DNA of 58,916 nt, the filler included, from Basidioascus undulatus (Eukaryota), in NCBI GenBank assembly GCA_000826855.1. It is 6 parts of 6 records of this genome, joined end to end, with 100 filler letters (N's around TTAATTAATTAA, not from the genome) between each part and the next. Parts side by side here need not be neighbours in the genome. Positions count along the whole stretch, not along the records: positions 52,635 to 58,916 come from JTLS01001770.1; 5 more parts are not named here. The stretch is one strand, 5' to 3'. The notes beneath the pieces are model-generated. The model worked only from the letters and a program-made list of their open reading frames with translations, had not been told where the DNA came from and searched no databases. Positions 6,323 through 54,632 of this stretch are shown piece by piece; the stretch's first letter is position 1; each line of letters opens with the position of its first letter. The translations under genes were made by a program, and so were the position numbers.

Positions 6323-6422
6323 NNNNNNNNNNNNNNNNNNNNNNNNNNNNNNNNNNNNNNNNNNNNTTAATTAATTAANNNNNNNNNNNNNNNNNNNNNN
6401 NNNNNNNNNNNNNNNNNNNNNN
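6323..6422. other. artificial contig linker N44-TTAATTAATTAA-N44
   Basis: Identical 100-bp unit at all five gaps; the core carries stop codons in all frames. Confidence 0.98.
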
Positions 6423-7741
6423 TGAGGGTTACGAGACGGGAAAGGGCGGAGAGCGTTTGGGGGAGGGGCGTGCCGGGCGCGGGGTAGGGGGGGAAATGAG
6501 GGACTGCCGGACGGTAAGAAGTCAGCTAAGAAGTTAGTGATCTAATCAGGACGCAAGGAAGTAAAGAAGGAGAAAAACGGCGAAGATGGGGGTGTAAGGG
6601 GGAAGGAGAGGAAGAAGGACCAGAACGAAGACGCACTCTTCTCCTTCAACTCGACCCTCAGCTCCCGCTTCGTAGCGCCCAAGAACCGCCTCCAGCCGCC
6701 TCCCCACCGCTGGACGTGCACCGCGCCCATGGCGACGTGAGCGCCCGCCCACCCGCTCTCCCAGCTGTCCTGGAGCCAGGCCTGCACAGCGCGGACGTCC
6801 ATGCCTGGCGCGAGCGAGAGGCGGAGGGTGATGTTGAGGGGGGTGAGCCAGGCTGGGTCGGGGTCGCCCGAGGGGGAGGAGTTGGCGGAAGAGATGGAAG
6901 AGATGGTGCTGGTGGTGGAGGAGGAGGAAAATGATGATGAGGGGGAGGAGGAGTTCACACCGGTGGAGAGCGGGAGGGAGATGGGGTGCGGGATGGAGAT
7001 GGTTCCGAGCGCGTGGGAGCCGGCGGTGCTGTACCCCGGCGTGAAGAGCTCGACAGGCTCGGGAAGGGAGACGGTCACGCCGCCCAGGAAGCCAACGCCC
7101 CACCGCCCGAGCTTAAACCTCAGGCGCGGGAGCCATCCGCCTCGCTCGTCGACAAACCCGCCTCCAACGCCCATCGCTCGATCCGCATCGACACCCGCAC
7201 TAACGGTGACCCACAGACTGACGCCCTCGTCGCCCACCTCCTGCACCTGCACCTGCTTCACCCGTCCCAGCACCACACTGCGCCTGAGTGCCTCCTGACT
7301 AAACGGCCTCGCGCTCTCCTTCGCGGGCGGCGCGCCCGCGCGCATAAGCACCTCCGCGGCGAGGAGAGCGAGGCACAGCCCGAAGAGGGCGAGCCACAGG
7401 CCGGTGATGCAGCATGTCCAGGTCCTGCGGCGGGTGCCCTGCCTCCGCGTTGGATGGGACGCGCGATGGAGGGAGGAGCGCAGGGTGGGCGGGGGCGTCT
7501 GCCAGGGGACGTTGGAGAGCCCTTGCGGACCGAAGAGCGAGGCACGGCCGTGGTGCGTCGGATGCGGCGGGCCGGTGGGCTGGAACGAGTGCGTTGAGGA
7601 TGTGGGTGAGGAGGGGAGCGCGGACGTTGAGGTCCCGGCGGTGGGGGCGGAGGAGGAGGTTGAGAGCAGCGGGGAGCGCTCGGAAGGGTGCACGGCTTTG
7701 CCCTTGTCTGATGGGCGACGCTCGGACGGCGATAGCGACAT
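6423..7741 (-). CDS. Tag1-like / DUF3712-type type II vacuolar membrane protein, N-terminal part
   Basis: ERSPLL dileucine-type motif, Ser/Pro-rich N-tail, one TM (CCITGLWLALFGLCLALLAAEVL), then a beta-rich lumenal region. Intron donor GTGCGT at 6636; next exon PHFPPYPAPG...LSRLVTL is cut by the gap. Confidence 0.65.
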
Positions 7742-9199: not shown

Positions 9200-10215
9200 T
9201 GGCTCTTCAGCGAACTAGTGGCTCCTGTGTGATTTGCGAAAGAGTGCAGCCCATTTCTGGAAGGAGAACGGCCGCCAAGTAGTCCCTTCAGCGGGGGGCG
9301 GGCGAGAATGGTCAAGAGGTACGTGTACCAGTCCCCTGGGGCTTTGCAGCGGTCCGGTCCGCGCTCGTTGGGGAGACGGATGCCCAGGCATGCTGCGCGA
9401 CGATGGCCGAGAAGCACGAGCGCGTTGCGGATGAGGCGCGAGGGGCTGGTCAGAGCGAAGAGGTCGCTCCGAGGTGCAGGAGAGGCGCAGGTGGTCGAGG
9501 ATGCAGGTGGAGGATGCAGGTCGAGGATGCAGGTCGGGATATCCAGGTCGAGATGTCCAGGTCGAGACATTCGAAGGTCGAGAGCGCTGTTGGAGCAGTC
9601 GAGACTGACAGTCGCGCTGAGGGTTGCGAGCCTGCAAACAGTCATAGGGCGAATTCAGCAACGGAAATCCACGATTAAATGCAGCCTTAGCAGAGCTCAG
9701 ATCCAGACGTACCGTCGCAAGCGCCTTCTTCGCAAGCTGCACACGGCGCCGATTGCCGCCGTCGAGGAGCCCGAGGATCTTTCCAGAAGCGTTAACCTCG
9801 AGCTTAGATGTGATCTCCGCGATCGCGGTGAGCGTGTCGGGCGACTTGAGGGGTCCGACAGCCCGACGAGGGCGAGGAGGATATCGGCGCAGGCGGAGTG
9901 GAAGAAGGGCGCCGAAGCGTCCAGATCTAATGTCCAAAATTCATCTGAATTAAGGAGAAGACTGAAGAGACGCTTGAGAGGGGCTGGGACGTACAAGAAG
10001 TTCACAGTGGCACCTCCGTCCTTCTTAGGACGACAACCAATAACGCTCTCCGCAAGTGGAACGGCTATAAATATGCCCTTTCTGCTGTCCAACTTGATGT
10101 GAGTGGTGTTATGAAGGAACGCCTTGTCTTCCGATGTGAGCTTGGGCCGCGTGGGAGGGCTCGAGGGGTTCAGGAAGGGCGCAGAGCAGACGCCGCAGAG
10201 GAAGTAAGCGGACAT
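9200..10215 (-). pseudogene. degenerate hypothetical gene (CxxC at N-terminus)
   Basis: ATG at 10215 (MSAYFLCGVCSAPF) after a CT-rich tract. The protein-like frame needs a +1 base in the C4 run (G4 at 9850-9853). GTACGT..TGCAG intron ~9631-9712, then a minisatellite whose units are not multiples of 3. The 3' boundary is uncertain. Confidence 0.35.
9497..9582. repeat. degenerate 13-14 bp minisatellite (GAGGATGCAGGTC-like, about 6 units)
   Basis: gaggatgcaggtg / gaggatgcaggtc / gaggatgcaggtc / gggatatccaggtc / gagatgtccaggtc / gagacattcgaaggtc. Confidence 0.8.
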
Positions 10216-12741: not shown

Positions 12742-12841
12742 NNNNNNNNNNNNNNNNNNNNNNNNNNNNNNNNNNNNNNNNNNNNTTAATTAATTAANNN
12801 NNNNNNNNNNNNNNNNNNNNNNNNNNNNNNNNNNNNNNNNN
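12742..12841. other. artificial contig linker
   Basis: N44-TTAATTAATTAA-N44. Confidence 0.98.
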
Positions 12842-19148: not shown

Positions 19149-19248
19149 NNNNNNNNNNNNNNNNNNNNNNNNNNNNNNNNNNNNNNNNNNNNTTAATTAA
19201 TTAANNNNNNNNNNNNNNNNNNNNNNNNNNNNNNNNNNNNNNNNNNNN
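19149..19248. other. artificial contig linker
   Basis: N44-TTAATTAATTAA-N44. Confidence 0.98.
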
Positions 19249-25555: not shown

Positions 25556-25655
25556 NNNNNNNNNNNNNNNNNNNNNNNNNNNNNNNNNNNNNNNNNNNNT
25601 TAATTAATTAANNNNNNNNNNNNNNNNNNNNNNNNNNNNNNNNNNNNNNNNNNNN
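25556..25655. other. artificial contig linker
   Basis: N44-TTAATTAATTAA-N44. Confidence 0.98.
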
Positions 25656-42764: not shown

Positions 42765-42774
42765 AAGCAACATT

Positions 42775-42848
42775 GGCCGCTTAACTCAGTTGGTTAGAGT
42801 GTGGAGCTAATAACTCCAAAGTCGCAGGTTCGACCCCTGCAGTGGCCA
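42775..42848 (+). tRNA. tRNA-Ile(AAT), intronless
   Basis: GGCCGCT/AGTGGCC acceptor stem, ACTC/GAGT D-stem, TGGAG-CT-AAT-AA-CTCCA anticodon arm, GCAGG-TTCGACC-CCTGC T-arm; oligo-T terminator about 8 nt downstream. Confidence 0.98.
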
Positions 42849-43849
42849 ACCAAGTCTTTTATTTTGTGGATCTCATTTTTGCTTCGTACACCGTTTCCAG
42901 GACGCACGTCGAAGAACGAAAGCAGTGCGAGGTAGTGAGAGATCGGATCGCACTTAAATGCTCTGACCTGCTTTCTGGGTCGTTCTCCCCGCCTACGTTC
43001 AGCAATCCCTAGTACTGCGCAGTCAGTGGCAGCTCTTGATCACCGTTATGAACCGTCCACGCCGCAGTCGTGAAGCCGACCAGCCCGCGCAGCCCCCAGC
43101 CATGCCCATCAATGCCCATGCCCGCATCCGGCAATGCGCGGGTTGCGCGTGAACGGCACGGCTCATTCGGTCGCCCAACGGCCTCAGAAAGACAACTGAT
43201 ACGGTTTGAACCTGTTGGTGCATGTTGAGGAATAAGACTGTCTGCAGGCCGTGTAGCTTCCAACTGAGGAACGCAAGAATGCCACATTTTCGGCGGTGCT
43301 CGCCCGCTGAGGATCGTTGTGGCAGGCACGTATTCGAATTACAAATCTTTACGAATCCGGAAAACGTTTATCAACCTGGGTATGACGGCTATTGAGCGAA
43401 TGCGCTGGGTTGCAAGTTGATCAGAAAAGGTTCTTCTATATTCGACGAGACGCAAATGCATCGCGACAGGTACTGCAAAGGCCCTCCTGTCAGATAGGTA
43501 CCTTCATGGGTGAAGATGGCAGCACGCCACAACGCAGCCTGAGCACTGGACTATAAAAGTCCGCATCTGTATGGGGCAGAATGACAGCCTTTTGCGAGGT
43601 TCCTACCTTTCACGTTGGTGGGCTTTTCCTGGCCGAATCTACTTTTCTGGGCTGCGGCTCGCAAGGGGCTGCGCCGCTGTGTGCTCGCCGCTCTGAAGGA
43701 TATAATTCAACTTGGGTGCTGAGTGGGAACGCTGCACTCCCCTCTTGACGACATTTCTCACTGTGCTTGTTGAACCGACACCCGTGCTGTGCTTCACGAG
43801 TTCCACACCCTCCCGTCTTTCCACCTCTCTTGCGCTTGGCGCGACTGTA

Positions 43850-52457: not shown

Positions 52458-52530
52458 TCGTAGTCAGATACTCTACCATTGAGCCAGCCGGCCGTGACCG
52501 ACGCAGGGATCGAACCTGCAACCCCCTGAT
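52458..52530 (-). tRNA. tRNA-Arg(ACG) in permuted order: 3' half (nt 38-73; 52530-52495), 1-nt spacer C (52494), 5' half (nt 1-37; 52493-52458)
   Basis: Halves reassemble into a complete 72-nt cloverleaf: GGCCGGC/GTCGGTC+A, GCTC/GAGT, TCTGA-CT-ACG-A|A-TCAGG, GCAGG-TTCGATC-CCTGC. Confidence 0.8.
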
Positions 52531-52534
52531 CGCG

Positions 52535-52634
52535 NNNNNNNNNNNNNNNNNNNNNNNNNNNNNNNNNNNNNNNNNNNNTTAATTAATTAANNNNNNNNNN
52601 NNNNNNNNNNNNNNNNNNNNNNNNNNNNNNNNNN
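52535..52634. other. artificial contig linker
   Basis: N44-TTAATTAATTAA-N44. Confidence 0.98.
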
Positions 52635-52692
52635 CTTGAACGACTGACCTCGTCATTACTAGTGACGCGCTCTACCACTGAGCTAAGGAGGA
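52635..52692 (-). tRNA. tRNA-Thr(AGT), 3' end lost at contig edge
   Basis: TCCTCCT-TA-GCTC-AGTGGTA-GAGC-G-CGTCA-CT-AGT-AA-TGACG-AGGTC-AGTCG-TTCAAG; AT-rich upstream. Confidence 0.9.
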
Positions 52693-53685: not shown

Positions 53686-54632
53686 ATGCCCGCATTCGTC
53701 GCATCCCCGGCCGAGACGCCTGGTGTGGACGCGGCTCACAAGCACCGCGGTCGCTGCCACTGTAATGTGCGTAGGCTTCCTGAGATTGGACTGAGGAGAG
53801 AAAATATACTGAATCTTACAGGCCATGCGCTTGCGCATATGACAGGCAGCCCGATTCACATTCAGCTTACCTGAGCTGCCCGACGCCTCTACGCATGAGA
53901 TGGACATCTTGGAGTGCAACTGCAGTGCGCTGCTCTCCTTGTCATCTAGACAGCACATACTGCAGCTTACTTTGGCGTCTATGGTCGTCCGTACCCGTGC
54001 GAATCTGCACAGGGCAAGTACAGGGCTTGACTGACAAGCGATTCTCCTGCTGACTTGACGTGGCATGGCTATTATGCCTGGCCCTGCTGGAACAGCATCT
54101 GCTGCATGAAGGTTTGTCAACATCCCACTTTCCAGCCCTGCCTGCCTTTCTCAGGCAACCACCACCTTACCCGGATGCTGTGGCGCAGCTTCGCTGACTT
54201 CCCCACTTGGATTGTGTGCCATCTGGAATGACCTGATGCAGGGTTTCCTACACCTCACGCTTCCGCAATCGCTACTCAAGCTCGAGACATCGCCTGCTGC
54301 TCTGACTACGTACACGTTCGGAACGCACACCGCGCAGCACTACCACTGCTTGACGTGCGGCGTCTCGCCGTTCTACATCCCGCGTTCGCACCCGGACTGT
54401 TACAGCGTGCGTCGGGCTAGAACATTCCTTTCACATTCGTGGACCAAATCATCGAGACTCATAGTTTTCAAATCTATACGCTGACGGTCGGCTCTTTCCG
54501 CGCCACAATGGACGTTCCTTCCAGGTCAACTGGCGATGCGTCGAGAAGGAGTCGTTCGAGGGGTGGCAAGTGAGGATAGTCCCGTTTGATGGAAAGAACT
54601 GGGAGAAGAATGTAGGGAGCATTCGGAAATGA
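53686..54632 (+). CDS. GFA / CENP-V family zinc-binding protein (six exons, one of them 1 nt)
   Basis: HRGRCHCN|AARF, ECNCSICCMK|GFLHL, YTFGTHTAQHYHCLTCGVSPFYIPRSHPDCYS|VNWRC, FDGKNWE. Confidence 0.93.

Follow-up and report, generated by a model that had tools for sequence, protein, structure and literature searches.

A stretch of 58,916 nucleotides of Basidioascus undulatus DNA (assembly GCA_000826855.1), referred to here as the window, contains a gene of the GFA/CENP-V family in which a single G at position 54013 is, very probably, a constitutive exon one nucleotide long. This prediction is drawn from the sequence of an otherwise intact gene, in which the G would be the middle base of a serine codon split over three exons.

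The gene lies on the plus strand, maps to contig G000:C857, and its six joined exons encode an open 149-aa GFA/CENP-V protein. Coding exon 1 (53686-53766) begins with an ATG that we take to be the start codon, the profile match running only from residue 16 onward, and according to the gene model and the profile alignment it carries the CHC motif, i.e., Cys24 and Cys26 of the structural zinc site. It is followed by intron 1 (53767-53845; 79 nt, GT-AG). A rival upstream acceptor of this intron, TTACAG at 53821, would create a genome-typical 55-nt intron but would lead to a stop after 33 aa, and the productive form therefore needs the acceptor at 53845. Coding exon 2 (53846-53924) ends with the codons for C-N-C and an A, the first base of the serine codon. 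Next come intron 2a (53925-54012; 88 nt, GT-AG, GTGCGC...CACAG) with a predicted branch site CTTAC at 53966-53970, the predicted single-nucleotide exon (G, 54013; the middle base of the Ser54 codon AGC), which is backed by model enumeration, null tests and motif spacing, and intron 2b (54014-54095; 82 nt, GC-AG, GCAAGT...AACAG) with a predicted branch site CTGAC at 54050-54054. In both introns the sequence between the branch site and the acceptor is free of AG. The coordinates given for the two introns in the preliminary description are exact in the sequence, which reads CACAG|G|GCAAGT at 54008-54019. Coding exon 4 (54096-54111; 16 nt) supplies the final base of Ser54 and then I-C-C-M-K, in which Cys56 completes the three-Cys zinc site. 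Intron 3 (54112-54241; 130 nt, GT-AG), coding exon 5 (54242-54406; 55 aa, with Cys95 and Cys98), intron 4 (54407-54524; 118 nt, GT-AG) and coding exon 6, which includes the stop codon (54525-54632), complete the model. Intron 3 also contains an internal CAG|GC at 54154/54155, which in principle would permit two-step removal without an exon base; it is probably incidental, as the donor GCAACC is not enriched before branch sites (14 vs 14.0 expected).

The identity of the gene was derived from several comparisons. Exon 5 is at most 65% identical to PF04828 proteins, PF04828 being the precomputed assignment of all of the best 120 of 214 matches, and it also matches PDB 3fac_A (E 1.4e-6). The joined 149-aa model scores 160.9 bits against a local profile built from 120 homologues, all of them PF04828, and is ~50% identical to the best full-length GFA-family matches, while a Pfam search with single exons gave no match. 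Seven zinc Cys are retained in the model (24, 26, 51, 53, 56, 95 and 98), arranged as CxC, CxCxxC and CxxC. Judged by this Cys pattern and by the profile match, the predicted protein is a member of the GFA/CENP-V family (PF04828). In Paracoccus GFA, the ligand pattern is described as a four-Cys and a three-Cys zinc site, with a zinc ion held by three Cys (PMC4682968); the spacing in our model is identical to that of the four-Cys structural and three-Cys exposed sites of the family (PMC2532784, PMC4682968). Mutation of the three Cys is reported to change the behaviour of both GFA and CENP-V (PMC4682968, PMC2532784), and the equivalent three Cys are reported to play a part in the CENP-V overexpression phenotype (PMC2532784). 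In comparison with animal CENP-V, the best matches of the present gene are compact members of 120-135 aa without the long N-terminus. Two further GFA-family paralogues exist in the genome, L001 (G000:C39) and L002 (G000:C2575); both are more distant, and inspection by eye found no split within the three-Cys motif in either. The family search that detected them missed the present gene.

The window is composed of six contigs joined at 6323-6422, 12742-12841, 19149-19248, 25556-25655 and 52535-52634 by linkers of the form N44-spacer-N44 (TTAATTAATTAA at one of them), so that genes on either side of a linker need not be neighbours. At two contig ends beside a linker, tRNA-like fragments were noticed by eye on the minus strand (52500-52534 and 52635-52690); the only tRNA called by ARAGORN is a tRNA-Ile at 42774-42852.

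The need for one base between exons 2 and 4

A key question is whether the protein needs the additional base. With G54013 included, the CNCSIC motif is read in an open frame; when it is skipped, translation ends after 57 aa at a TGA (54107-54109), the premature stop already given in the preliminary description. Retention of both introns 2a and 2b leaves 89 aa, retention of the downstream intron alone leaves 66 aa, and retention of the upstream intron alone shifts the frame. The motif C[NDTS]C-x(1-4)-C was present in 300 of the 383 homologues collected (of the other 83, many of those inspected look truncated or continue through introns), and the gap between the second and third Cys (Cys2 and Cys3) was exactly two residues in all 300, the first of these being Ser in 291, Thr in eight and Tyr in one. 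Since this spacing is fixed in every motif-bearing homologue, exactly one base is needed between 53924 and 54096.

All models with up to three GT/GC-AG introns of at least 30 nt between exons 2 and 5 were then enumerated. This gave 132,428 models, of which 14,733 had an open frame. Two of the open models tied at 119.9 bits, the highest score; in these, the single-nucleotide exon was G54013 and G54024, respectively. The latter G (54024, plus strand) belongs to the second copy of an ACAGGGC repeat and yields the same protein, but it is a much weaker candidate: its donor, GCTTGA, reaches a U1 pairing energy of only -2.6 kcal/mol, occurs 13 times before branch sites against 25.2 expected, and failed the branch test. 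Thus, the earlier claim that CNCSIC can be built only through G54013 has to be narrowed, as a single-nucleotide exon is needed but a second site ties for it. The next best model (113.8 bits) uses a single GC-AG intron from a poor donor at 53929 and gives CNCSAIC, with three residues between Cys2 and Cys3, a spacing seen in none of the 300 homologues. An exon of five nucleotides followed by the GT at 54018 was rejected because it shifts the frame. What is generally known of the major spliceosome speaks against one non-canonical intron (GT...CA or TG...AG), which was set aside on this basis. Barring such an intron or a sequence error, the gene as it reads would require a single-nucleotide exon.

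Splice signals, chance expectation and the order of splicing

To what extent do the sequences around G54013 resemble the splice signals of this organism, which look like those of a fungus rich in introns? In a 600-kb sample of the genome, the branch motif peaks 30-49 nt downstream of strong donors; for GT[AG]CGT, the two peak bins hold 81 and 96 sites, against 3-27 elsewhere. The offset from donor to branch site is 42 nt in intron 2a and 37 nt in intron 2b, both within this peak, whereas a single 170-nt intron would require ~125 nt. Both branch 5-mers are enriched in the sample (CTGAC, 203 vs 66.4 expected; CTTAC, 52 vs 32.6 expected). The donor of intron 2a, GTGCGC, pairs weakly with U1 (-1.4 kcal/mol) and is enriched before branch sites (58 vs 31.0 expected), in contrast to the donor of the 53929 route, GCTGCT, which is depleted (22 vs 38.2 expected) and has a pairing energy of +1.6 kcal/mol. 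GCAAGT was found before branch sites 30 times, against 15.8 expected, an excess part of which may be due to GCAA|GT donors; for G|GCAAGT the count was eight against 3.8 (p about 0.04), which weakly hints that this organism makes use of GC donors. Among fungal introns, GT-AG is reported to account for 98.7%, with ~1.3% being non-GT-AG (PMC7072748). The GC donor of intron 2b pairs with the organism's own U1 at nine of 11 positions, one of them a G-U pair, with -6.9 kcal/mol. This is the strongest pairing among the five donors of the gene, the other four ranging from -1.4 to -5.8 kcal/mol, and a level of -6.8 kcal/mol or better is attained by 51 of the 224 strong GT donors predicted in the genome sample. 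Intron 2b thus has the character of a U2-type GC-AG intron, in which a GC donor is combined with otherwise near-perfect complementarity to U1. Each of the two flanking introns is predicted to possess its own donor, branch site and acceptor.

The distance from the predicted branch site to the acceptor AG is 40-44 nt in four of the five introns and 27 or 33 nt in intron 1, while the median in the genome sample is 19 and values of at least 37 occur in eight of 224 cases; weaker and nearer branch sites may exist in this gene.

Another important question is how often such an arrangement would arise by chance. A YAG-G-G[TC] site occurred inside the region in 1,417 of 20,000 dinucleotide shuffles; 34 of the 20,000 (0.17%) combined the site with a U1 pairing of -6.8 kcal/mol or better, nine combined it with branch sites in both halves, and none combined it with strong U1 pairing and, in each half, a branch site followed by a 3' tail free of AG. 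The site was present in 389 of 6,958 genomic windows of 171 nt, and 30 windows (0.43% of all) also reached the pairing threshold of -6.8. All of these shuffle and window figures flatter the case for a single-nucleotide exon, as the criteria were fixed after the site had been seen.

Short exons do appear to be real in this genome, since a scan of ~660 kb predicted 53 pairs of introns no more than 30 nt apart, compared with about six in shuffled sequence. The scan rested on 1,190 predicted introns, against 561 in shuffles, so that approximately half are noise, and its donor list deliberately included G|GCAAGT. It returned two single-nucleotide candidates, G54013 and one in L006 (about 9200-10000, plus strand). 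The latter was dismissed as a false positive located in coding sequence that mimics an intron directly ahead of a real donor; we take this gene to be transporter-like, with the look of a phosphate transporter. In L014, exons of two nucleotides, CA and AT, were predicted between adjacent introns at positions 6970 and 8026 (plus strand). An origin of introns 2a and 2b by duplication was also considered and rejected, as their alignment score of 23 was reached by about 11% of 500 shuffles.

The preliminary description had proposed that the upstream intron is removed first, on the grounds that its removal would place the GC donor in the context CAG|GCAAGT, held to be optimal for U1. The genome contains two near-identical U1 snRNA genes, L118 (G000:C700:4769-4943) and L119 (G000:C2593:14414-14588), detected with E values of 3.7e-8 and 1.1e-5, both under the Rfam cut-off. 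Both U1 copies begin with ATACTTACCTT; a U therefore reads position -3 of the donor, which makes AAG|GTAAGT, and not CAG|GTAAGT, the optimal match. The GC donor pairs at -6.9 kcal/mol as AGG|GCAAGT, before any splicing, and at -6.8 kcal/mol as CAG|GCAAGT after removal of intron 2a. As far as U1 contacts alone are concerned, nothing is gained from the first splice, and the argument for upstream-first splicing fails, while the exon itself and its downstream GC-AG intron are supported by protein conservation and by the splice-signal statistics. In plants, splicing around a microexon tends to start with the downstream intron (PMC8831610), and for APC11, sequential removal of the introns has been argued on steric grounds (PMC4674806). 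With a donor and a branch site both stronger than those of intron 2a, intron 2b would be at least as likely to be removed first as second.

We therefore propose the following scheme, in which both the occurrence of splicing and its constitutive character are predictions. The 171-nt stretch that separates exons 2 and 4 would represent two ordinary introns of the major spliceosome, GT-AG of 88 nt and GC-AG of 82 nt, each of which would be recognised over its own length by its donor and a branch site ~40 nt downstream. Introns 2a and 2b would have to be removed in turn, since U1 bound to the GC donor would cover the upstream acceptor AG. Either order of removal would produce the Ser codon between Cys2 and Cys3 of the three-Cys zinc site.

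Competing explanations

One G of a GG pair might have been lost in the assembly, with AG|GT as the original donor context or AG|GC as the original acceptor context, in which case the real structure would be a single intron of 170 nt. Either position would then be a GG dinucleotide, where loss of one base is conceivable, and the assembly is broken into 2,992 contigs. The same gene has introns of 118 and 130 nt, which also count against the exon, since beside them an intron of 170 nt is not implausible. An assembly error would, however, leave to chance both the YAG-G-GCAAGT site with the best U1 pairing of the gene, found at the low frequencies given above for shuffles and genomic windows, and the upstream branch site with its AG-free tail, and it demands a distance from donor to branch site far outside the genomic peak. 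Coprinopsis has 13 single-nucleotide exons in about 13,000 genes (PMC12230235); taken as a rough prior, this suggests that, at any one site, an exon of this kind is probably at least as frequent as the loss of a base in the assembly or a new frameshift at either of two positions. The lengths of the introns, the placement of their branch sites and the internal site then strongly favour the exon, and we regard an assembly error as unlikely. Even less probable, in our estimation, is that the sequence is right and the gene is dead or poorly spliced following the recent loss of one base, the internal site being incidental or a partial rescue. The stop-forming acceptor of intron 1 and the unusually long distances from branch site to AG in four of the five introns are compatible with such decay, and for Fusarium it has been proposed that a cryptic exon compensated for the loss of a base (PMC12940212). 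On the other hand, the gene bears no other lesion, its remaining exons are in frame with all seven zinc Cys kept, and the chance odds of the internal site are as low as under an assembly error.

An equally improbable set of readings would have the gene expressed by another route, i.e., through G54024 as the single-nucleotide exon, through the GC-AG intron from 53929, or from a start at the downstream ATG (54106), which opens a frame of 92 aa. The first of these would supply the same protein and the second is the next best open model, but the donors of both occur before branch sites less often than expected and show poor U1 pairing, the CNCSAIC spacing of the second has no counterpart among the motif-bearing homologues, and the 92-aa form would be without five of the seven zinc Cys.

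Relatives and known single-nucleotide exons

At least seven intron-bearing relatives (P0128, P0132, P0276, P0279 and P0281-P0283) have an uninterrupted CNCSIC, with read-through introns near K-G and after Y-S. As the motif is unbroken in these proteins, from which alone the gene structure was deduced, the split is apparently absent in the seven relatives and may be lineage-specific. Six eukaryote-like proteins (P0129, P0131, P0156, P0180, P0184 and P0197) show xSCS[IV]C after sequence resembling an intron; judged from the proteins, an intron would interrupt their Asn codon, 4-5 nt further upstream than the present split. No close orthologous protein of more than ~70% identity to exon 5 was recovered by word-based and full HMMER searches, judged by the best 120 of 214, 3 of 3, 150 of 590 and 120 of 7,582 matches. 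Metagenome DNA was searched for the same layout with a degenerate pattern (CNC followed by a phase-1 donor, then 91-151 nt, then a phase-2 acceptor preceding ICxxK), which sees this layout only; it returned 54 loci in eight sequence groups, none of them GFA (best profile E 0.1).

The preliminary description regarded single-nucleotide exons as very rarely documented, which overstates their rarity. In Coprinopsis cinerea, long reads are reported to reveal 13 of them in 13 genes, and their omission often leads to a premature stop (PMC12230235). The skipping of the present exon has the same consequence, and Coprinopsis, for which exons of 1-3 nt are described, is a basidiomycete (PMC12230235). The terms GFA, CENP-V and PF04828 had no match in five supplements of that study, which contain no per-gene list (PMC12230235). 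Most similar to the present exon is that of the Fusarium CYP621A P450 genes, likewise a single G, which is reported as conserved across about 20 orthologues and supported by 18 SRA reads (Nelson and Syed 2026, PMC12940212). Both exons are fungal, and in both the single G provides the central base of a codon belonging to a conserved motif, with flanking introns in phases 1 and 2 (PMC12940212); the Fusarium exon was likewise missed by annotation (PMC12940212). The two differ in that the Fusarium exon (AG-G-GT) precedes a GT donor, lies in a P450 gene and has RNA support (PMC12940212), while the present one precedes a GC donor, lies in a GFA/CENP-V gene and is predicted from the sequence.

In plants, the single-nucleotide exons of APC11 and VPS55 are described as experimentally validated and conserved across land plants (PMC4674806, PMC8831610). 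As in our gene, the coding exon of one nucleotide is needed to maintain the frame; the plant exons are constitutive, and sequential removal has been proposed (PMC4674806). The branch point of APC11 lies 44 nt upstream of the exon, compared with 43 nt predicted here (PMC4674806), whereas the donors differ, being GT in APC11, GTRAGT in VPS55 and GC in the present case (PMC4674806, PMC8831610). Ascomycete stwintrons, in which an inner intron interrupts the donor, branch site or acceptor of an outer one and the order of removal is therefore forced, resemble our case in requiring two consecutive U2 splicing reactions within a short stretch (PMC8469720, PMC9024468, PMC12403724). In contrast to stwintrons, the signals of introns 2a and 2b are both intact before splicing, one base would be kept in the mRNA, and either order is workable. 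A stwintron was consequently rejected, as no splice signal is interrupted and the second donor pairs with U1 equally well whether or not the first intron has been removed. By title, no single-nucleotide exon in a GFA/CENP-V gene or before a GC donor was found in the literature covered, with subscription journals largely outside this coverage and the Coprinopsis per-gene list likewise. Exons of this type are thus already known; the present one is, on the sequence evidence, very probably real, and its gene family and unusual GC donor would be new.

The finding does not change what is considered possible, since plants and Fusarium already provide validated single-nucleotide exons and the long-read annotation of Coprinopsis contains others. 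For annotation, the exon, if real, would illustrate how a zinc site can be lost: a model that misses G54013 is left with a 57-aa stub or a 92-aa fragment. The 171-nt unit, with its two candidate G sites, may serve as a convenient minigene or natural substrate for studying the order of splicing around a single-nucleotide exon. A lineage-specific, GC-bounded exon that splits a zinc-site codon could also act as a switch that sets the level of GFA/CENP-V through unproductive splicing, given that any skip leads to a premature stop and that the gene has a stop-forming acceptor in intron 1 and unusually distant branch sites; we consider this role doubtful. If real, the exon of B. undulatus would extend the few fungal cases of single-nucleotide exons to another gene family and to a GC donor.
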